A stretch of DNA of 64,000 bases from a virus. The stretch's first letter is position 1. Each line of letters opens with the position of its first letter. A model generated the notes under the pieces. The model saw only the letters and a program-made list of their open reading frames with translations. It was not told the origin of the DNA and made no database searches. The translations under genes and the position numbers were made by a program. Positions 6,032 to 59,908 of the stretch are shown piece by piece. The DNA is taken from UHGV virus genome UHGV-1375844, one strand, 5' to 3'.

Positions 6032-6050
6032 GTGCTTTCCTTTAGTTCTT

Positions 6051-8412: not shown

Positions 8413-9077
8413 TACTCTTCCTCCAGACTCAAGATATAATCAACAAACTGTTCAAACTCGGCTTCTGCCTTCTTGTCGCGTTCGGCGCCAGTCATTTCAA
8501 AGATAGAGCGACCAGCCTCTTCTGCATCATCGTAAACGTTACGGTTGTACAAATTGACCGGTGCAGCTTCGATACCAAACGTCTCAACGATTTCTTTGGC
8601 GGCCAGAATACGCGACACCTGGGAAGGTAGTGACGGGCACTGGTTGATAACGGCACGTATTTTCACCTTCTCGTTCACATTGCGTACATTGTCGATAATC
8701 GGGTCGATGTCGCGCAGCGATTTCAGGTCACGACGTTTAGGGCGCAGCGGTATGACGATAACATCAGCCATCAGCATAGCTTGTCGCTGGATTTCGGAGT
8801 CGAAGCCCCCTGCGTCTACAACCACGTAATCGAAGCGCCCCTGAAGCGATTTGAGATGCTTAACGACGTCTTCCTGAACGTAAGCGAAAGGAATGAGATC
8901 GAGATCTTCATTCTGTCGACGGTCTTCGCACCAGCTGGTAGTGGTGCGCTGGATGTCGATGTCGGTAACTTGGATTTTCTTTTTCTTTTTGACTTTCAGG
9001 CAAACCGCTATTTGCTGGGCAACGGTCGATTTACCCGGGCCACCCTTCGTGCCGCCAACCACAATGATCCTAGTCAT
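8412..9077 (-). CDS. ParA/ParF-family partition ATPase
   Basis: Deviant Walker A GGTKGGPGKST, 221 aa. Confidence 0.8.
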   Translation of the reverse strand: MTRIIVVGGTKGGPGKSTVAQQIAVCLKVKKKKKIQVTDIDIQRTTTSWCEDRRQNEDLDLIPFAYVQEDVVKHLKSLQGRFDYVVVDAGGFDSEIQRQAMLMADVIVIPLRPKRRDLKSLRDIDPIIDNVRNVNEKVKIRAVINQCPSLPSQVSRILAAKEIVETFGIEAAPVNLYNRNVYDDAEEAGRSIFEMTGAERDKKAEAEFEQFVDYILSLEEE

Positions 9078-9111
9078 TGAATAGTTCCCTTTGCGTGAAT
9101 TATTGTCGTAT

Positions 9112-9130
9112 GAAACAACTTGTTTTCTTA
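9112..9130. promoter_or_regulatory. motif B copy upstream of ParA-like gene
   Basis: GAAACAACTTGTTTTCTTA followed by TATGCGATAT. Confidence 0.45.
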
Positions 9131-9272
9131 TATGCGATATAGCCTAAATGCCTACGGCTGCGGTGTAAAGGTGAAATGGTAGGTATTATCGAGATAGAGA
9201 GGGTCTTGAGATTAAGAATGAGAAGAGGTAAACAACTTTTGGCGAGAAGGCGGCACATAGCCGCCAGACTGT

Positions 9273-10022
9273 TTATTTAGTGTATAGGCCGACAGGTGCT
9301 CTTGAGCAACGAGAGATGATTAGAACAATGAACTTCTGTACATTGACCTGAACTTTGTTAGGCAGCCATGAACTGAGTTCGGGATCGAGCAGTAACCCAC
9401 GATTCCAAGGTAAAAAACCCGTGTTCTTGCCCATGCCGTATTCACCCAGCACGTCCTCGAACGTTTCTGTTTTGGCATTGTATATACGCACATCGCCGGT
9501 ACGCATGAGAGGGCCAGCCCAGATCTTAGCGCCAGGAATGGTTTGTTTATCGTCGCAGACTAAATGCTCGTACCAATGAAGAAGGAAAAGATAGGTACGG
9601 TGACACAATCCTCGCTGACGAAGCGCTCTGACGGTTTCGACCCCTGCTACCTGGTAACAGTCAATCTCGTTGCCGTCTTCAATAAAACTATATCCACGCA
9701 GAGCTATCCTGCCGGCGATCGTGTTTTTGCTTTCGTCCAGCAGTCCGGACTGGAGCGCCTCTTTGATGATCTCTTCTTCAGGGGCATCTTCATCAGCTCG
9801 ATCTAAGATAAATTCACTCAGGTCGCCCTGGTCGTGCGCGCCGACTCGCTCCATAGAGACATACAGGCAAATGTCATCTTCTGGCTCGATGATTTCAATT
9901 TCTGAGATTTTATAGAGGGAGGCTTCGTTGATGAGAAAGCCAAAACGAGCAACACGAGTCTCCCCTTGATGAGGAAACTCGCTTAGATCTTTTGAATATG
10001 CGGTATCTAGTGTAGGAGCCAT
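9273..10022 (-). CDS. hypothetical protein (249 aa)
   Basis: Long ORF; no recognisable motif. Confidence 0.5.
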   Translation of the reverse strand: MAPTLDTAYSKDLSEFPHQGETRVARFGFLINEASLYKISEIEIIEPEDDICLYVSMERVGAHDQGDLSEFILDRADEDAPEEEIIKEALQSGLLDESKNTIAGRIALRGYSFIEDGNEIDCYQVAGVETVRALRQRGLCHRTYLFLLHWYEHLVCDDKQTIPGAKIWAGPLMRTGDVRIYNAKTETFEDVLGEYGMGKNTGFLPWNRGLLLDPELSSWLPNKVQVNVQKFIVLIISRCSRAPVGLYTK

Positions 10023-40242: not shown

Positions 40243-40880
40243 ACACTCCCATCACTTTCATCGTCCGACGCGTCAGAATCGATTTCAGCTTCGCTCAGCG
40301 CTTCCTCTTCCAGCGACTCAAGCAGTTCATCATCGATCAACTCAGGCTCATCGTCTTCCTTACGCAGCTGCGCAACCTGTGAAGGTGTAAGTTCGCCAAA
40401 CACCAGGTTCGGAATTTCATCTTCCTCATTTTCGGCGCGATCCATGCCGAGCGCTTTCGAAGAGATTTCGAAGCACTTGGCCAGTGTGCCGCTGGCTCGC
40501 TGGAGACTTTTAAGGTCATCTTCTATAGCTGCGAGAGGTCTGCCATCCTTTTTGGCAGTGGCAACTTCGTGCATGACCATGCGCCCGAGTGCAAACGCCC
40601 AATCGTCGTAGCGAGTACGCCGCTCTTCAATTTTGTCTGCTCTCGCTTTGGCACGAAGCTCCGCATCGGATTTGAGCGATTCGCGAACCATCTTTCCAAC
40701 AGAGTCAGCGCCCTTCTCTAATCCACGCTTTTTGAAATGTCTGGAGAGCGTTTCACGACGAATGCCGTACTCTTCCTCCAGTTTTGAGAGCGTATACTCG
40801 CCTGAAGTCCACTTCGCTTCGGCTTCTGCCCACTCAGCTGGCGTCAGGCGAGTTTTGGTCTCGTCTTTTTCTACCGTCAT
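40239..40880 (-). CDS. terminase small subunit
   Basis: 213 aa with N-terminal HTH-like segment and acidic C-terminus; overlaps large-subunit start by 4 nt. Confidence 0.6.
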   Translation of the reverse strand: MTVEKDETKTRLTPAEWAEAEAKWTSGEYTLSKLEEEYGIRRETLSRHFKKRGLEKGADSVGKMVRESLKSDAELRAKARADKIEERRTRYDDWAFALGRMVMHEVATAKKDGRPLAAIEDDLKSLQRASGTLAKCFEISSKALGMDRAENEEDEIPNLVFGELTPSQVAQLRKEDDEPELIDDELLESLEEEALSEAEIDSDASDDESDGSV

Positions 40881-46889: not shown

Positions 46890-47417
46890 ATGACGAACAT
46901 AACTGACATCACCTACGGTATACCTGCAGAAGTCTGGCCGCGGGATTATTCTAACGTCGAGAAGGCACTCATGTTCTGGCGTAAATCCCTCATTCCTGTA
47001 AGGGTCACGATGGAGGATGGTCAGGTGTTCTGCATGTATGTGCAGGGTCTCATGTCATCCCGCAATAAGGTTGATCTTTGCTCTGCCCCGTTCGACAAAG
47101 AAAATCGTATAAGGCTCCCACTTGAGCGGATCAGCACGATTGAGTCGGGTGTGACAGAAAGTATTGGACACGACTTCAAGGGGCGAATCACGATTAACCC
47201 CGAATATGTTGATAATCGGCCATCTCGCCGGGACTTCTTCAAAATCTGTCGGCAGGCTCATGCGTCTCAGAAGTCTATAAGGGTGTACATGGCGGATGGC
47301 CGTGAAATTGAAGGTGTGTCATTAGGCGTTGACGCTTGCCAGGTCACGATCGGCATTGGTGAAGGTCGCAAGATGGTGGTCTTGTTCGATTGGGTCGAAA
47401 GGATTATACCGTTTTAA
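46890..47417 (+). CDS. hypothetical protein (175 aa)
   Basis: ORF directly after lipoprotein gene. Confidence 0.5.
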   Translation: MTNITDITYGIPAEVWPRDYSNVEKALMFWRKSLIPVRVTMEDGQVFCMYVQGLMSSRNKVDLCSAPFDKENRIRLPLERISTIESGVTESIGHDFKGRITINPEYVDNRPSRRDFFKICRQAHASQKSIRVYMADGREIEGVSLGVDACQVTIGIGEGRKMVVLFDWVERIIPF

Positions 47418-48397: not shown

Positions 48398-48424
48398 TAG
48401 CGCCCACTATGGGCGCTAGTTTTA
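48398..48424 (+). terminator. intrinsic terminator
   Basis: AGCGCCCACTATGGGCGCT hairpin plus GTTTTA. Confidence 0.5.
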
Positions 48425-48436
48425 AGGATAAAAATC

Positions 48437-48640
48437 ATGACAAGCTATGACCAGATCCTCGCGGAGTATCGCGCAAAATATCGCGCTTATAAACTTGAAT
48501 TAATCGACGATCTAAAAGCGCAACGCGATAAACTAAATTTTACTTTTGCTGATTTGCTTAACAGTAAAAGAGACTGTAAACGCAAGCGTGAATATTTGCG
48601 CTTGTCTGAAATGATCGGAAAACTGCAAAACAGCATTTAA
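48437..48640 (+). CDS. hypothetical small protein (67 aa)
   Basis: ORF between two copies of the same terminator hairpin. Confidence 0.45.
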   Translation: MTSYDQILAEYRAKYRAYKLELIDDLKAQRDKLNFTFADLLNSKRDCKRKREYLRLSEMIGKLQNSI

Positions 48641-48643
48641 ACA

Positions 48644-48670
48644 AAAGCGCCCACTATGGGCGCTTTTTTC
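48644..48670 (+). terminator. intrinsic terminator (second copy of GCGCCCACTATGGGCGC hairpin)
   Basis: Hairpin followed by TTTTTTCG. Confidence 0.65.
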
Positions 48671-49149
48671 GTTTCAGGATCTCCACCATAACGCGCCAAC
48701 AATGGCGCGTTTTCTTTTGTCTGGCGTTCACTCATTCACAACAAAAATAAGCTCCATAAAAACGCCACTGCGACGCGTTTTAACGTGTGGCAATACGTAC
48801 CCATAGCTAAAACAAAAAAGCGCTCAGAATGCGAGGTGTGGCGTTTTAGTGTATGGCTTATTTTATGCTGTCGTGGGCGTGATCGTCTGGCGTTATCTGG
48901 CGACGTGATCCGCGCCATCCTTCGGGACGTGTCGGCAATAATGGCGTGATCCGTGGGCGCTCGCGTATAGTCTCCACGTTGGCGCAACGTGTACGCGCTT
49001 ACAGTCTCGTTTATTCAGTGATTCATAATCACATAGCGAAAGCTATCCGGATGGCTCAGGGGCTGAAAAGCCCACCAGCACCACCCCAGCGCCTCTGTGC
49101 ATTTTCTGGTGTGATTCTGAGCGTCTCCCGCTCGGTTTCTACATAGAGG

Positions 49150-49262
49150 CAAACCCAGCCGTTTCCCGAAAATTCCCTGGCCGTTTCCCTACGGCTGCCC
49201 GAATCGCTCTCTGGCCGTTCCTGAAGTTTTCCCCTGCGGCAGCGGGCGTCCAAAAAGAAAGG
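49150..49262. repeat. iteron-like direct repeats (GCCGTTTCCC family), 4 copies
   Basis: CCAGCCGTTTCCC, CTGGCCGTTTCCC, CTGGCCGTTCC, GGGCCGTTTCC at roughly 25-35 bp spacing. Confidence 0.6.
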
Positions 49263-49284
49263 GCCGTTTCCAGCCCCTCCCCTC

Positions 49285-49767
49285 TCACACGCCAGGCAGG
49301 ATATGAATGCGGTTGCTGACATACATCTCTTTCACGAAGTCCCCGCATGTGACTTTCCATTCACTGACACCGGCTTCATAAACCACGTTTTTGCATTTAA
49401 GTGCATTGTCAGCGATACGCACACCCTGCGCTGTTGCTTCCTGGTCGGTGAAGTCGAACCCGGATTCAGTTTTGACCCACACGGCAATTTGTGTTGCCAG
49501 CTCGATGAGTTTTGACTGGCAGAAGCGACCGCGTCGTACCGGGAAGATAAATACCCCGAACCCCGCGGTGGTAACGTAGGCTTTTTCGAATACGCGTTTA
49601 TGTCGACGGTTACAGATAATGTTGCTGGCGATCTGCTGCTTCTCTTTCCCTGACAACTCAATGGTCTCATTGCCACGCCAGGCGCCCAGCACGCTTTTTT
49701 CAATGTCAGAGTAAGTCACGGAGATCGTGCCATGCTCGGGAGTGTTCACAGTAGCGATATAGTTCAT
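49285..49767 (-). CDS. hypothetical protein (160 aa)
   Basis: ORF with motif B immediately upstream. Confidence 0.5.
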   Translation of the reverse strand: MNYIATVNTPEHGTISVTYSDIEKSVLGAWRGNETIELSGKEKQQIASNIICNRRHKRVFEKAYVTTAGFGVFIFPVRRGRFCQSKLIELATQIAVWVKTESGFDFTDQEATAQGVRIADNALKCKNVVYEAGVSEWKVTCGDFVKEMYVSNRIHILPGV

Positions 49768-49780
49768 CGAGATAATCCTT

Positions 49781-49816
49781 TAAACAATTTGTTTTCTTGA
49801 TGGTTTAATTATCGCT
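49781..49816 (-). promoter_or_regulatory. motif B promoter/operator copy
   Basis: Minus strand reads GCGATAATTAAACCATCAAGAAAACAAATTGTTTAAAGGA then ATG. Confidence 0.5.
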
Positions 49817-49990
49817 ACGCGTATCAGGCGTCCAAGCGCTCTATTCCGGCATCTGTTTGCCTGAAGGGAGTCAGAGGGTCGTTCGGTAGCCTGGCGGTAA
49901 GAGGTGGGTGTTTTGCCTGATGTGATGAGGTTGGTATATCTGGCGGGCAAGCGGTGCTATCTTGGCCGCAGGTAACTCAGGAGACTCAAG

Positions 49991-50179: not shown

Positions 50180-50206
50180 GCCACCAGCAAGGGTGGCCCC
50201 GTTCTC

Positions 50207-50488
50207 TTAGTGGAGCAGACCGACGTCGATGGTGTCGCCGGAGTCTGTGATGCGGATCATCAGCATGGCGAAGGCATTTAACGGATAGCCTGCGTGCCAC
50301 TCCGGGAAACGATCGTCTCGCATGAAATCGGCAATGTCATACACGCTGTCCTGAAAACGGAAGAAGCGGGTGGCGCTCTGCTCGTCGTATTCAACATGAT
50401 CCATCTCCTGCTGTTCTGCCGGCGACAGGTCCAGCCAGGACTCCAGGTAAACATTTTCAGCTTTAGGGGTAATTGTAAAATCGGTCAT
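50207..50488 (-). CDS. hypothetical acidic protein (93 aa)
   Basis: ORF with motif B upstream and GAGGA RBS. Confidence 0.5.
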   Translation of the reverse strand: MTDFTITPKAENVYLESWLDLSPAEQQEMDHVEYDEQSATRFFRFQDSVYDIADFMRDDRFPEWHAGYPLNAFAMLMIRITDSGDTIDVGLLH

Positions 50489-50506
50489 GTGCTTAATCCT
50501 CAGTGC

Positions 50507-50542
50507 GTAAACAATTTGTTTTCTTGTTGGTGTAATTATCGC
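50507..50542 (-). promoter_or_regulatory. motif B promoter/operator copy
   Basis: Minus strand TGCGATAATTACACCAACAAGAAAACAAATTGTTTAC. Confidence 0.5.
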
Positions 50543-50615
50543 AGTGTGAATAAGGCAGAAAACATTTTGTTATCGGGGGCAAGTAAGTGGCGCGGGATTC
50601 GCGCCACTGGCGGGA

Positions 50616-51008
50616 TTAGGCGAACACGCTTTCAGGGATGTAATCATCAATGAGTGCGCCGGAGTTAATGCGCAAACCGTACTGACCCATCCAGGTGCTG
50701 TTAGGGTTAAGATCTGAGGTGAACAGCGCGTTCACTTTCGTCATAAGCGATTCGAACATCGTACTATCGACGGTGCGGAAGTAGGCTTCCAGTTTGAGCA
50801 GTAGCGGATCTGATGCGTCGCTAATGTTCTGGTAGCCAATGGCGTATGTGCTCTTATCAGTACCCTTACGCACTAAGGTGCTGGTATGTACCTCAGTTCC
50901 GGTGGTGTTATCACGCACAACAACGGTCAGTTTGGCAGTGGCTTCGCCGGAGGTGGTCTCAGATGCATAATGCAGATCGAGTACCAGATTTTCACGTAAA
51001 ACAGTCAT
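50616..51008 (-). CDS. hypothetical protein (130 aa)
   Basis: ORF preceded by motif A copy. Confidence 0.5.
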   Translation of the reverse strand: MTVLRENLVLDLHYASETTSGEATAKLTVVVRDNTTGTEVHTSTLVRKGTDKSTYAIGYQNISDASDPLLLKLEAYFRTVDSTMFESLMTKVNALFTSDLNPNSTWMGQYGLRINSGALIDDYIPESVFA

Positions 51009-51047
51009 TATCTTCTCCCTGTGTTAGACCCCTTTTATATTATTGTC

Positions 51048-51063
51048 ATAAGTAACTACTTAC
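51048..51063. promoter_or_regulatory. motif A palindrome copy (variant)
   Basis: ATAAGTAACTACTTAC upstream of 50616..51008. Confidence 0.4.
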
Positions 51064-51138
51064 AATACAGAGTAGCCAAAAAAGCCCCGAAGGATGGACG
51101 GGGCTGTCGTAAATTCGACTAAACGCTTTTGCACATGG

Positions 51139-51450
51139 TCAGGCTGTGGCTTGAAGAGAGACGCGCTGTATTTCCTGCTGGGCTGCTTTATTGGCTTCAA
51201 GTAATGCCAGCTCAAGCTCCCCTTCTGGCCATATCATTTGTTTGGACACCCATCCTGTTTTCCCCTGGCGTCTGACACTCATCACATAGCGCGAGCGGGC
51301 GCCATTTTCGAACGTGACAAGTGTCTCCTTGAAGAGCCTGATGGATGTACCGTTTGCGATAACATCAAGGAGAGTCAGTTGCTTCAGTATTGTTGGCTTG
51401 GCCTTTTTTGGCTGCCCAACACTCAGTCTGGAAATCATCCCGATATTCAT
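51139..51450 (-). CDS. hypothetical protein (104 aa)
   Basis: ORF 51139..51516 trimmed to MNIGMISRL; the upstream 22 codons are the motif B element read in frame. Confidence 0.45.
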   Translation of the reverse strand: MNIGMISRLSVGQPKKAKPTILKQLTLLDVIANGTSIRLFKETLVTFENGARSRYVMSVRRQGKTGWVSKQMIWPEGELELALLEANKAAQQEIQRVSLQATA

Positions 51451-51460
51451 ACACAACTCC

Positions 51461-51497
51461 GTAAACAATTTGTTTTCTTGATGGCGTAAATAATACC
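51461..51497 (-). promoter_or_regulatory. motif B promoter/operator copy
   Basis: GTAAACAATTTGTTTTCTTGATGGCGTAAATAATACC on plus strand. Confidence 0.5.
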
Positions 51498-51590
51498 AGT
51501 GTGAAAACGGTGACAAAGCGTGTCGTTACGGCGCTGCGCTGCCCCGGAGGTGGCAAACAACAAAAAGCCACCGTGCTGGTGGCCTCACTC

Positions 51591-51809
51591 TTAATCTTCT
51601 TCGTCCGGGAACTCGCTGTGTACCGCGTCCACCAGCTGCCGCTTTTCATCTTCACTCAGCAGGTGCCAGATATCCTTCCCTTTGGGCGATTCCCCTTCTG
51701 CCGGGACGAACGACCATAGCTTGCGGTGCAGTTCCGGCCCTACAGCATCCAGACATTCGGCCAGCGAATCCACACTCCACACCTCAACCAGCACAGGCAT
51801 CTTAATCAT
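51591..51809 (-). CDS. hypothetical acidic protein (72 aa)
   Basis: ORF trimmed to MIKMPVLVEV start to avoid overlap with the next gene. Confidence 0.4.
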   Translation of the reverse strand: MIKMPVLVEVWSVDSLAECLDAVGPELHRKLWSFVPAEGESPKGKDIWHLLSEDEKRQLVDAVHSEFPDEED

Positions 51810-51819
51810 CTCTTCGCCC

Positions 51820-52038
51820 TCACTTCGTTTCTGACGTTGTGCAGTTCCACGCGACGGACATTGGGCTGTCCTCGATATGGAAATCAAACGTCCCTTCTCT
51901 GTACCCTTCAGAGATAAGCGTCGCTACGCGAGTAGTGACATCCTGGGAACGGATAACGTCATCGAGGGAGATCTGGAGTTCGTCAGTGCATGTCTCTTCT
52001 CCGCAAAGGGTGATGCTGATATTAAGATGCTTGTACAT
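51820..52038 (-). CDS. hypothetical protein (72 aa)
   Basis: ORF with motif B upstream. Confidence 0.45.
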   Translation of the reverse strand: MYKHLNISITLCGEETCTDELQISLDDVIRSQDVTTRVATLISEGYREGTFDFHIEDSPMSVAWNCTTSETK

Positions 52039-52053
52039 GTGTTTCTCCTTTGT

Positions 52054-52089
52054 CTAAACACGTTGTTTTCTTATTGGTGTTATTATCGC
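52054..52089 (-). promoter_or_regulatory. motif B copy in divergent region
   Basis: CTAAACACGTTGTTTTCTTATTGGTGTTATTATCGC between minus gene start 52038 and plus gene start 52181. Confidence 0.5.
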
Positions 52090-52180
52090 AATAAGAAAAC
52101 GGGGAAAAAGCATTCATTAAAGGCTGATGTGTTTGTGTCGATTTATTGCTATGTATGTATCTGGCTAACTCAGAGGGAAT

Positions 52181-52426
52181 GTGATGAGCACTAACAACTA
52201 CACAGACGGCTACTTCAGCATCGATGTCGAGAGAGGCGAACTGCTACATGGCGGCGCCTCTGTTGGACGCATTATTCTGGTCAACGGCCAGATTTACACA
52301 GAGCTGGACGATAGCAGTGCAGACACACCTGTCGTCTCCGGTCCCTTCGGGACAAGAGAGGAGGCGTTAGATGATTTGTGGGACAACAGGGATGATGCAA
52401 ATCAGGGCAGCGAGATTTTCGAATAA
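52181..52426 (+). CDS. hypothetical acidic protein (81 aa)
   Basis: GAGGGA RBS before ATG. Confidence 0.45.
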   Translation: MMSTNNYTDGYFSIDVERGELLHGGASVGRIILVNGQIYTELDDSSADTPVVSGPFGTREEALDDLWDNRDDANQGSEIFE

Positions 52427-52604
52427 ACGTCCTCGGCAATTTCGCCACCAAAACCCTTAACCCTTTACACTAGCTCTGGCTTCCCGACATGAGCGTGCGA
52501 AGCTAGTCTGGTCTCAACACTCAATTGCGGGACTCACAAGTTCCCGCAATATTCAGGTTAACGAGAAGCAAGACACACTCCCGCAGCGCTCCCTCGCTCT
52601 TTAC

Positions 52605-52750
52605 CGGGATGCATCCGTTTCCTGACCTGAAGCCAGCCTTTTCCCGGTTCGCATGACGGGATTCTCCCCGTTTCCCTGAAAAACCCAGCCGTTTCCCTGC
52701 GGCGATGCTCCCGTTTTCCAGTAGGGATGCAGCCTTTTCTCTGGATGGCC
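52605..52750. repeat. iteron-like direct repeats (GCCGTTTCCC family), about 6 copies
   Basis: CATCCGTTTCC, CAGCCTTTTCCC, CCCCGTTTCCC, CAGCCGTTTCCC, CCCGTTTTCC, CAGCCTTTTCTC at about 22-28 bp spacing. Confidence 0.6.
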
Positions 52751-52979
52751 CGCAGGTTGACCGTAGGGGTGGGGAGGGACGTTACGGGAGATAAAATCAT
52801 GGCTTGAATAAATACGGGAAAAGTAGCGATCCCCCTCTTCCCCTTCCCACTTATACCTCCAGTTAAATCTCTGCGTTCCTCTCTCCTTTAATCGAATCTG
52901 TCTTCCCTCCGATAAGGCTCAATACGATGACTACCTCTGTACGTGAAATGGGTGGTTCGTACTCTCTGCCGGCATATGT

Positions 52980-53470
52980 CTTTTTGCGCTTCTTGAGGCT
53001 GTTCTTCTATGCGTTTTCTTCTGGGTTGTTTTCGTCTCTTTGGGTGTTCTTCTTCTCTGGGTATTGAGTAATGGCAGGTGTGCTTTCCTCTTCGTTTACT
53101 TGCTGAGAAGGAAGTGTGGGGAATGGCAGTAGGGCGCTTTAGTTGTTCTCTGCATATCAAGTAATAGCGTTCCCTGCTTTTCAGGACTTTGCGCTCTCTT
53201 CAGGGGTAATGGTGGGTAAGTAAGATTGCAACGGCTCCTGTTCTGGTCTGGGTTTGCCCGGGGTTGCATTCTGAGCGCTGTTCTCTGTGTTTTGGGTAAT
53301 GGCATGTAGAGGATTGCGTGCGCGAGCTGCGTCTCGGTTGCCTGGTGGCATTAGGTGGGTGGTCGGTAGCCTGGGGTCAAGAGGTGGGTCTATTCCATAG
53401 CCTGGTGGTAAGAGGTGGGTAGTTTCCGGGGGTTGTGGGCAATGGCGCCTCTGGGTTTCCCGCGGGTGGG
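52980..53470. repeat. degenerate tandem direct repeats in ORF-free region
   Basis: Recurring TTCTCTGGGT...GGTAATGGC units (period roughly 75-80 bp) and 3 copies of TAGCCTGG.GGT.AAGAGGTGGGT; a fourth copy of the latter lies at about 49871. Confidence 0.55.
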
Positions 53471-53510
53471 ATTAATTTGTTTTCTTGCTGTAGAAAACAA
53501 CTTGTTTAAA
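53471..53510. promoter_or_regulatory. motif B copies in both orientations
   Basis: ATTAATTTGTTTTCTTGC and GAAAACAACTTGTTTAAA. Confidence 0.4.
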
Positions 53511-53706
53511 TGGGCAATTTAACGCAATCAGAGCGCTTTTGAGCGTGTCTGTTTTTGGGTGGTGTGTTGAGTCGTTAGAGATGCTTTCGTCGCGAGGTGA
53601 TTGATTCTGGTGGGCAGGATAGCGGGTATAAGAGATGGCATGTGAAAACGTCAACTTTTTAGACTAAATCGGGAGAATGCATTGACATTTCTTTGATGTG
53701 TTATTT

Positions 53707-53731
53707 ATTTGTTTTCTCATATGCGTAATTA
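53707..53731. promoter_or_regulatory. motif B-like copy
   Basis: ATTTGTTTTCTCATATGCGTAATTA (compare 9112..9130). Confidence 0.35.
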
Positions 53732-54075
53732 ACTGAAAGCCCTTGTCACGCCTGGTCTGGTGTAGGTTGGGAGAGTGGAGAAAGTGGCGATCAACGGACT
53801 CTTATAGAAATCCTCATTTTGTGACCGCCAATGTCAACGATTTGACTAAATCAGATGGTCGAGTTCATCGTTGATTTGCTCTCTCAGGGAGGAATCGTTT
53901 ACACCCCACGCGTCAATCCTTTGCCTCAACTCTGGACTGAATTGCATATAGATGCTGTGGATGATTTGTGGGGTAGGGGTTAAACCTCTCATCGCAATGC
54001 ACTGGTACAGGTATGACTTTTCACTGAACACTGTTAAATGCCCTCATTTGATTGAAAAGTGCATTTTAACCTTAG

Positions 54076-54393
54076 TCACCAGTCCCATGAGGTAAGTCCG
54101 TCCACCAGCTCGGCATCACGGTCGAAATGTACCGAATCGAAGCCAGCATCGAGTACTGCCTGAATATTCGTTATCGTCTCTTCGGAGATATTGTAGGCAC
54201 GCAGTTCTTCCTTCCAGTCATTCCCCCGTAATCCGGCCCGGACAATCCATCCGTACTTGCTACCGTGTACCCAATTCAGCCCGCGGTCTGTGATTGGGTC
54301 GAAACTTACGACAGGCAGACGTTCAGAGTCTTCGCCCGTTACGTGAGCGGTGCTGATCACCGCCGTCTTATAGGACTCGGTGATTTTCAGCAT
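54076..54393 (-). CDS. hypothetical protein (105 aa)
   Basis: ORF coupled to the upstream gene. Confidence 0.5.
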   Translation of the reverse strand: MLKITESYKTAVISTAHVTGEDSERLPVVSFDPITDRGLNWVHGSKYGWIVRAGLRGNDWKEELRAYNISEETITNIQAVLDAGFDSVHFDRDAELVDGLTSWDW

Positions 54394-54639: not shown

Positions 54640-54675
54640 TTAAACATCTTGTTTTCTTGTTGGTGTTATTATCTC
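54640..54675 (-). promoter_or_regulatory. motif B promoter/operator copy
   Basis: TTAAACATCTTGTTTTCTTGTTGGTGTTATTATCTC. Confidence 0.5.
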
Positions 54676-59880: not shown

Positions 59881-59908
59881 ATTGTTTTCTTATTGGTGTT
59901 ATTTTCGC
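59873..59908 (-). promoter_or_regulatory. motif B promoter/operator copy
   Basis: TTAAACAAATTGTTTTCTTATTGGTGTTATTTTCGC immediately upstream of methyltransferase ATG. Confidence 0.5.

Follow-up and report, generated by a model that had tools for sequence, protein, structure and literature searches.

Several described phage and plasmid systems resemble parts of a gene-free block at positions 52427 to 54075 of the viral genome UHGV-1375844, an SSU5/pHCM2-type phage-plasmid of which a stretch of 64,000 nucleotides (here, the window) was analyzed. In the phage-plasmid P4, two non-coding clusters of one short iteron, ori and crr, lie about 4.5 kb apart; its iterons (TGTTCACC) are found in either orientation, and the alpha primase-helicase that binds them is encoded close by. 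R6K gamma has seven 22-bp iterons and distant alpha and beta sites, and P1 has separate replicons for the plasmid state and for the lytic state, the latter being repressor controlled (C1-controlled Op53/P53, repL, and oriL), with oriL within the repL coding sequence. Lambda carries three operators at each of OL and OR, which are 2.3 kb apart and looped by CI, and the phage-plasmid N15 has dispersed centromere sites. In cluster A mycobacteriophages, RNA-based origins rely on RNAs that the prophage expresses and that support replication in the plasmid state (PMC7157519). The block bears on the question of how SSU5/pHCM2-type elements leave the plasmid state and replicate as phages. It is shown here to be a mosaic of oriented conserved motif arrays, and its core is tentatively read as a cis-acting DNA module of the lytic phase, either a lytic origin or a replication-control region.

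The best match to the region and its flanks is plasmid pAMS-38a of Enterobacter hormaechei, with 97.5% identity. Salmonella phage SSU5 (84%) and Salmonella Typhi pHCM2 (83%) also match, and there is homology to many non-mobilizable IncFIB plasmids of about 105 to 115 kb. The annotation of pAMS-38a contains a siphovirus structural module and also a DnaB-like helicase, a primase, DnaE, a ligase, RNase HI, RepA, and a ParA operon. Judged by these matches and this gene content, the window is an SSU5/pHCM2-type phage-plasmid. Such elements are frequent in clinical Klebsiella, Escherichia coli, Enterobacter, and Salmonella, and some of them carry resistance genes.

A conserved gene-free block

No credible gene was found at 52427 to 54075, and the Prokaryotic Genome Annotation Pipeline (PGAP) places no annotation there in pAMS-38a or pHCM2; the block is unannotated in all PGAP-annotated records inspected. 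Annotated records and a viral-contig pattern scan supplied 55 distinct homologs for an alignment, in which the substitutions lack a 3-base periodicity, multiples of 3 account for only 157 of the 771 indels, and the open reading frames (ORFs) of the region are inconsistent from one relative to the next. When the block was compared by blastx with all ORFs of the window, no match reached an E value of ≤1, and the best tblastn match of a neighboring 160-amino-acid protein to the block had an E value of only 2.2. The block is therefore non-coding and not a decayed gene. This agrees with an earlier note on this DNA, made from the letters alone, which had seen no convincing ORF there; its proviso that the repeats might be relics of degraded coding sequence is contradicted by the same tests, and that candidate was rejected.

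The core common to all clades spans 52590 to 53845 (about 1.25 kb), so that the extent first proposed, 52440 to 54075, holds for this core and not for 53845 to 54075, which is lineage specific. By sensitive BLAST, the core was detected in 857 plasmid records, with hosts in Klebsiella, Escherichia, Enterobacter, Salmonella, Citrobacter, Cronobacter, Shigella, Kluyvera, and Buttiauxella, and in 12 phage records; identities are 65 to 97%. Nearly all of the matched records carry no annotation beneath it, and the “hypothetical” ORF calls that are the only annotation over the block in two phage records look spurious. The pattern used to scan genome contigs (596 Gb) was too short, and its matches were nearly all due to chance, the real ones being confined to Kluyvera and Buttiauxella. 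The core is 66% identical to the E. coli version, 68% to the Klebsiella version, and 82% to that of pHCM2; the corresponding ranges for three flanking genes are 37 to 64, 52 to 81, and 65 to 88%. The gene-free core is conserved like its coding neighbors, which at the level of sequence identity shows it to be under purifying selection equal in strength to that on those genes. No other conserved gene-free element of the family is as large, and a literature search found no description of it.

Phased iterons and a sister module

The left part of the core carries an iteron array (52612 to 52743, + strand) of six copies of gCC(G/T)TTTCCc in one orientation, seen both in a pattern scan and as conserved islands. 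These GCCGTTTCCC-type direct repeats, with a CCGTTTCCC core, start at 52614, 52636, 52667, 52688, 52710, and 52732, that is, at start-to-start spacings of 22, 31, 21, 22, and 22 bp. The stricter pattern CC[GT]TTT[CT]C matches five of the six, against about 0.024 expected per 130 bp, and the Poisson probability of at least six is about 3 × 10−13, an approximate value because it assumes six iterons where the strict pattern gives five. The roughly six direct repeats at helical-turn-like spacing that the earlier note described are thus confirmed, in line with the three or more direct repeats of 17 to 22 bp in helical phase that mark Rep-type iteron origins. Relatives have 3 to 6 copies, and of 174 neighboring pairs in the family, 115 are spaced by 22 bp, 31 by 31 bp, and 14 by 23 bp. 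The 22-bp phasing is kept in 53 of the 55 relatives. In the two exceptions, the viral contigs L011 and L024, an unrelated inserted sequence replaces or splits the iteron segment (aligned to 52486 to 52900), and the insertion in L011 resembles an insertion sequence (IS) end. The iteron core is short, the spacers within the 22-bp units are variable, and the repeats are not contiguous; a scan of viral contigs for iteron pairs (CCGTTTCC-N12-15-CCGTTTCC) returned mostly coding repeats and chance matches.

A sister module lies 3.4 kb upstream. Its iteron part (49154 to 49272, + strand) has GCCGTTTCCC at 49158 and again 22 bp further on, at 49180, with GCCGTTTCCA at 49263, and it adjoins the 3′ end of the gene for the 160-amino-acid protein (49285 to 49767, − strand); the iterons recur nowhere else in the window. 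Its repeat part (49883 to 49935, + strand) consists of TAGCCTGGCGGTAAGAGGTGGGT and a degenerate second copy, at 49887 and 49913. The main block has the counterpart at 53334 to 53423 (+ strand), where three tandem 29- to 31-bp repeats contain the bipartite motif TAGCCTGG-N4-AAGAGGTGGGT with a variable N4 spacer. This motif occurs three times in the region and once at 49887, against 0.01 expected. In the 30 genomes with enough flank, both modules have the same layout of iterons, about 700 bp, and two or three tandem 30-bp repeats, and the same iteron is thus found in two non-coding clusters kilobases apart (52612 to 52743 and 49154 to 49272). The 700-bp interval holds the 160-amino-acid gene (phrog_1641) in the sister module and a non-coding G+T-rich domain in the main block.

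In the divergent relative L310, the 160-amino-acid protein is only 49% identical, yet the full layout and the CCGTTTCCC core are retained, and the repeat half-site is GAGTGGTGT at both modules, replacing AAGAGGTGGGT. That one repeat family has changed in concert at both modules calls for an explanation, and it indicates one putative trans-acting factor that recognizes both modules. The N4 spacer of the 23-bp motif differs between the modules, which favors a bipartite protein site over RNA-RNA pairing; antisense pairing of the 23-nt motifs of the two modules was ruled out on this ground. In this lineage, both modules lie in 3′-3′ intergenic spaces, where no flanking-gene promoter is needed. The sister iterons stand in a 650-bp gene-free gap between convergent genes (48640 to 49300), which also holds two strong terminator hairpins, at 48643 to 48667 and 48690 to 48711, the first of them recurring at 48400 to 48417. 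The same gap has four GGCGTGATC-type units (48876 to 48951), the first three 13 bp apart, ahead of the sister iterons.

A domain of maintained strand composition

To the right of the iterons, conserved segment B (52786 to 52860; 1.45 to 1.56 bits per position) contains TTGAAT, TACG, GCGA, a polypyrimidine/polypurine tract of 17 to 20 nt, which is the C-rich run at 52831 to 52848, and CACTTATAC. A short variable stretch separates this segment from the G+T-rich domain (52911 to 53470, + strand), whose skew extends to about 53700. Between 52950 and 53640, the + strand is 33% G, 35% T, 17% C, and 15% A. The domain contains GTAATGGC-type units at 53066, 53118, 53160, 53204, 53294, and 53437 (+ strand), and GGGTAATGGC-like units number five in the region and eight in the whole window, against 2.6 expected for the window. 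Tandem Repeats Finder reports only a 19-bp array of 2.2 copies and a 29-bp array of three copies in the region. The degenerate tandem array with a period of about 80 bp in the earlier note is therefore not as regular as described, while its motifs are indeed over-represented.

In all 55 relatives, the GC skew of the domain is +0.24 to +0.48 and its AT skew is −0.31 to −0.49, opposite to the rest of the element. Two-allele columns of the domain are G/T in 60 cases and A/C in 4 (15:1), whereas a ratio of about 2:1 is expected under strand-symmetric mutation at the composition of the domain (binomial P = 3 × 10−6). By this measure, it is the strand composition itself that is selected and maintained, an unusual constraint that acts on composition rather than on sequence or RNA structure and that points to a function of one strand while single stranded, as DNA or RNA. 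The C+A-rich − strand is predicted to be scarcely able to self-pair, with a mean minimum free energy per 160 nt of −14 to −24 kcal/mol versus −31 to −51 kcal/mol for the + strand. The G+T strand was also considered as a Chi-bearing strand and rejected, as Chi is enriched on the opposite strand and absent from the core.

Operator-like sites and expression in the prophage

The right part of the block contains an operator-like element (53474 to 53510) made up of one full copy (53494 to 53508) and a half copy of the dispersed palindrome TAAACAAnTTGTTTT. This palindrome is found at 21 places in the window, where 2.7 would be expected, and belongs to a − strand cassette, GCGATAAT-N9-AAGAAAACAAnTTGTTTA, that is repeated at 49789 to 49815, 50516 to 50542, 52063 to 52089, 54649 to 54675, and 59882 to 59908; further palindrome sites are at 6050, 9112, 40921, 51462, 55070, 56740, 60591, and 62142. 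The cassette is located 15 to 25 nt 5′ of the ribosome-binding site of − strand small-gene operons and is also found before parA. Its palindrome is probably the operator of the prophage repressor, and with this reading, the block would hold a repressor-type site.

The most conserved stretch of the block, GGGTATAAGAG..AAAACGTCAAC..TTGACA..TTGTTTTCT (53624 to 53733), is also locally the least stable DNA. It overlaps a degenerate promoter/operator cassette in − strand orientation (53704 to 53726), of which L310 has a better copy at the equivalent position; sigma-70 promoter scans of the block with a prediction tool and with our own weight matrix found no convincing promoter. At 53786 to 53840 follows an invariant 8- to 9-bp inverted repeat, GGCGATCAACG..TCTTATAG..TGTGACCGCC, with a conserved CTTATAGAAA center (z = −2.8, − strand). 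In most relatives, this repeat directly follows the stop codon of the − strand gene upstream, and in L310, its arms differ yet still pair.

Transcription of the homologous block in the prophage can be judged from published RNA-seq of an E. coli LF82 lysogen of the phage-plasmid Cyrano, given as log2(5+FPKM) (fragments per kilobase per million mapped reads) in S1 Table of PMC9928086. Two ORFs, CYRAN_103 and CYRAN_104, have been called within the block. CYRAN_103 (about window positions 53360 to 53730) has a value of 2.32, which is 0 FPKM, in LB and is close to the floor in all ten samples, CYRAN_104 (about 52440 to 52860) has 6 to 12 FPKM, and CYRAN_102, the gene directly upstream, has about 50 FPKM (PMC9928086). 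The counted features cover the ends of the block and not its center (about 52860 to 53360), and they exclude abundant prophage-state RNA over the two ends, not over the center. The transcript that the earlier note had proposed to look for by RNA-seq does not appear in these lysogen counts, which are at or below background for the annotated parts of the block.

A candidate lytic-phase module and a regulatory alternative

The tentative reading of the core as a lytic origin or replication-control region is supported by the phased 22-bp iterons, the second cluster kilobases away, and the location of both clusters at gene 3′ ends. It is also supported by the repressor-type operator inside the block, by the counted ends being silent in the lysogen, by the dispensability of the block for the plasmid state (as detailed below), and by the helicase, primase, and polymerase that the element itself encodes. 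In the prophage state, the repressor, bound to the dispersed palindrome, would keep the module shut. After induction, a phage protein would bind the phased iterons at both modules, much as at P4 ori/crr or at R6K gamma with its distant sites, and would recruit the DnaB-like helicase, primase, and DnaE of the phage. The 0.7-kb G+T/C+A-skewed domain, single stranded, would be the zone that is opened, transcribed, or primed. Should the block prove to be the lytic origin or the switch region, work on induction and spread, or on their prevention, would gain a defined DNA target, and the block would mark a module that annotation pipelines could flag.

Several observations weigh against this reading. 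No initiator (rep) gene is recognizable beside either module, the neighboring proteins have no Pfam or PHROG function, and PDB sequence searches with three of them found nothing. Neither DnaA boxes (TTWTNCACA) nor the consensus of integration host factor (IHF; WATCAANNNNTTR) occur in 52400 to 54100. A duplex-stability scan revealed no outstanding AT-rich unwinding element, and the least stable 60-bp window of the block (at about 53680) is outside the 15 least stable of the 64 kb. The cumulative GC skew of the whole element, as computed for the near-identical pAMS-38a, climbs monotonically over the full circle, with no sign of an origin at the block. Finally, the three plus three tandem repeats and the operator fit purely transcriptional looping equally well.

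A more specific form of the same idea, a transcription-primed lytic origin of a kind not previously described in phage-plasmids, seems improbable. After derepression, a transcript would cross the skewed domain, and a persistent RNA-DNA hybrid would form at the polypurine/polypyrimidine tract (52831 to 52848), beside the iterons. The RNase HI of the element would trim this hybrid into a primer, and the phage helicase would be loaded by the iteron-bound protein. Selection would keep the domain skewed so that one strand avoids self-pairing while single stranded.

Nearly as likely as the lytic origin is a regulatory function, which we regard as possible. The two modules bracket the early-left operon (about 50200 to 52090), and regulators bound to the repeats would loop the DNA and silence or activate early promoters; as an insulator, a C-rich, G-poor − strand transcript would in addition form a long Rho-loading site that blocks read-through from cargo genes into the early genes. 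Looping would account for the three tandem 30-bp repeats per module, about 3.5 kb apart, for the operator copy within the block, for an inverted iteron-like copy at the −35 position of the leftward promoter cassette (52063 to 52111), and for the sister repeats upstream of the promoter cassette of the 160-amino-acid gene in both lineages examined. The − strand RNA over 52950 to 53640 would be 33% C and 17% G, nearly unstructured, and untranslated, as in a Rho utilization (rut) region downstream of a gene. Expression in Cyrano drops from about 50 FPKM (CYRAN_102) to 0 (CYRAN_103) over the right edge of the block, and this edge is a cargo hot spot with different cargo in different lineages. Five to seven iterons in strict 22-bp phase, at least 0.5 kb from promoters and at gene 3′ ends, would however be unusual operators, a rut site requires composition and not conserved 23- to 27-nt motifs, and no sigma-70 promoter is predicted in the block.

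RNA structure

RNA structure was assessed on 19 nonredundant relatives. RNAalifold, run on both strands in 160-nt sliding windows with column shuffles, gave a structure conservation index (SCI) that is 0.0 to 0.2 in most windows and peaks at 0.41, on the − strand near the right edge. No covariation was found, and the few predicted stems are invariant or lost between clades; the candidate hairpins at 53477 to 53500, 53533 to 53546, 52816 to 52843, and 53790 to 53830 are either invariant or not conserved across clades. Rfam gave no match at the gathering threshold in the whole window and, in E-value mode, only a chance microRNA match in the region (E = 0.45), and ARAGORN detected no tRNA or tmRNA genes. 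With the SCI mostly ≤0.2, no compensatory changes, and no Rfam match, a structured RNA gene is rejected, and the long structured non-coding RNA suggested in the earlier note finds no support.

A non-coding RNA of the lytic phase would be either a C+A-rich − strand transcript of about 0.7 to 0.9 kb that starts from about 53704 to 53726 or a G+U-rich transcript of the + strand, and it would act either through repeated single-stranded motifs that bind or titrate a protein or as a primer of DNA synthesis. We consider this unlikely. It would explain the selected strand-specific composition (G/T 15:1 over A/C), and it is consistent with the degenerate − strand cassette at 53704 to 53726 with its better copy in L310, with a terminator-like − strand hairpin with a U-rich tail that two clades have at 52816 to 52835, and with the center of the block being uncounted in the published RNA-seq features. 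Nevertheless, neither conserved secondary structure nor covariation is seen, the terminator-like hairpins are not kept across clades, and the features counted on either side of the center do not rise above zero or background in lysogens. The N4 spacer mismatch between the modules speaks against antisense pairing, and there is no Rfam match.

The plasmid state

In pAMS-38a, repA is located about 29 kb from the block and has copies of a different iteron, ACTCACTACAGTGGATA, on either side (at least 12 in all); the repA part of this plasmid (positions 1 to 38000) shows no enrichment of CCGTTTCCC. The Yersinia pestis plasmid pMT1, which is stably inherited, has retained repA with the IncFIB replicon and also the left flank, in which the sister module lies. 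Its homology stops near window position 50577 at IS1541, and the block is missing. In the pMT1 record (L312, 4584 to 5042), IS1541 directly follows the homolog of a 93-amino-acid gene, and the rest of the early-left operon is gone along with the block. The region upstream of parA (9050 to 9300) has none of the repeats of the block, only the dispersed palindrome. Since pMT1 is stable without the block, the RepA iterons are different and distant, and the parA region is free of the repeats, the block is, by comparison of these genomes, dispensable for plasmid replication and partition. A RepA/IncFIB plasmid origin or incA-like locus was rejected on the same grounds of different iterons about 29 kb away and of pMT1. 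The suggestion in the earlier note of an origin or incompatibility locus thus fails for the plasmid mode and is retained as an origin-like cis-acting site for the lytic mode.

The centromere that was also suggested, a partition or plasmid-maintenance site with phased repeats bound by a ParB/ParG-type protein, is very unlikely. In its favor, the direct repeats are in helical phase, dispersed centromere sites have a precedent in N15, and the element has partition genes, a ParA and small-protein operon and a ParB/Srx gene pair. Against this, the block repeats are missing 5′ of parA, where the centromere and operator of type Ib systems usually lie, pMT1 is stable in its host lineage although it lacks the block, and the short iteron core, variable spacers, and lack of contiguity are not those of a centromere array. 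That the block is a RepA plasmid-mode origin or copy-control region, a degraded coding relic, or a structured RNA gene is hardly credible, as only superficial features (iterons, no ORF, hairpins) recommend it, in the face of the different RepA iterons, the negative blastx and tblastn searches, the lack of codon periodicity, the low SCI, and the lack of an Rfam match.

Lineage-specific features and genome context

Two features of the left part of the block are confined to some lineages. The hairpin TGCGGGA...TCCCGCA (52524 to 52550, + strand; −14.5 kcal/mol, z = −4.2), which the earlier note had seen, is real and lies outside the core common to all clades, being missing in the E. coli and Klebsiella clades. 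It is about 100 nt 3′ of a clade-specific 81-amino-acid ORF (52181 to 52426), of which it is probably the terminator. The G-quadruplex-like run GGGGTGGGGAGGGACGTTACGGG (52766 to 52788, + strand) reads GGGGTGAAAAGGGA in SSU5, is altered in pHCM2, and is deleted in the E. coli clade, and it is not needed by the family. Of the G-rich/C-rich pair in the earlier note, both runs are present (52766 to 52788 and 52831 to 52848), but the G-run is lineage specific, and their pairing is no better than that of shuffled sequence (z = −0.2 on the + strand and +0.5 on the − strand).

To the right of the core, the lineage-specific extension (53845 to 54075) is not kept in the family and holds an ORF fragment of 42 amino acids (53855 to 53983, + strand). 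The end of this ORF (..DAVDDLWGRG) resembles the C terminus of the 81-amino-acid ORF (..EALDDLWDNR), and it is likely a duplicated fragment. Cargo to the right of 53845 consists of DUF5983 and DUF1380-type genes in this lineage, of DUF262 and a type I restriction-modification system in Klebsiella, and of metG in the E. coli clade (in relatives, L007 4010 to 6173, L006 and L008 3726 to 6227, and L189 10076 to 18181). Klebsiella IncFIB/IncHI1B plasmids of about 180 to 270 kb have acquired a 750-bp piece of the block together with the restriction-modification island.

Elsewhere in the window, Chi (GCTGGTGG) occurs 16 times, against 1.7 expected, with 13 of the 16 on the − strand (e.g., at 952, 1137, 5224, 12219, 15766, 22387, 29640, 41176, 42052, 49072, 50181, 51629, and 54102). 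This strand bias and the monotonic skew fit one-directional replication or packaging with RecBCD protection. A second dispersed palindrome, TA(A/G)GTAAG-N3-4-CTTACTTA, is found in the most AT-rich intergenic spots and nowhere within the block (3389, 6832, 12125, 13229, 19205, 25672, 32193, 37452, 38965, 44500, 51049, 58159, and 63009); as a loose pattern, it has 17 matches against 6.3 expected, and it probably represents the sites of another regulator or a promoter class. A 175-amino-acid protein of the FljA family (PF03614, repressor of phase-1 flagellin, E = 3 × 10−89) is encoded at 46890 to 47417 (+ strand) and is kept across the phage-plasmid family, including the divergent L310. FljA of Salmonella works on mRNA. 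In Cyrano (OV696614.1), the hypothetical gene CYRAN_43 (40268 to 40822) adjoins the integrase and a putative repressor gene, and its RNA-seq signal in the LF82 lysogen is about 700-fold over the prophage background (PMC9928086).

Comparison with known systems

The block resembles P4 in having two non-coding clusters of one short iteron, kilobases apart, in a phage-plasmid, and the second cluster is smaller and would be the accessory site. It differs from P4 in that its iterons all have one orientation and in the additional 0.7-kb skewed domain and second repeat family. With R6K gamma it shares five to seven direct repeats in 22-bp, two-turn phasing, and the distant smaller sites could likewise be reached by looping. 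Unlike the Rep-type iteron origins (R6K, P1 oriR, RK2 oriV, and pSC101), the block has neither a rep gene next to it nor a DnaA box, an IHF site, or a marked AT-rich unwinding element, and the genuine Rep-type origin of the element (RepA/IncFIB) is elsewhere.

As in P1, the replicons for the plasmid state and for the repressor-controlled lytic state would be separate, and the block holds an operator copy, but it is non-coding, whereas P1 oriL is in a gene, and it has no RepL homolog. As in lambda, three repeats are found at each of two sites, here about 3.5 kb apart, which bracket an early operon. These repeats differ from the lambda operators in being 23-bp bipartite and non-palindromic, with a spacing of about 30 bp, and in being accompanied by iterons, and the putative repressor gene of the element (the CYRAN_45 homolog) is far away, beside the integrase. 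With the RNA-based origins of cluster A mycobacteriophages (PMC7157519) and ColE1 RNA II, the block shares a gene-free length of about 0.5 to 1 kb, an extrachromosomal prophage, and no adjacent initiator gene; in contrast to these, its counted ends are silent in the lysogen, and the plasmid state here uses RepA. As the block fails at least one testable defining feature of each known system, it is assigned to no single known family and is filed as an iteron-bearing cis-acting control region.

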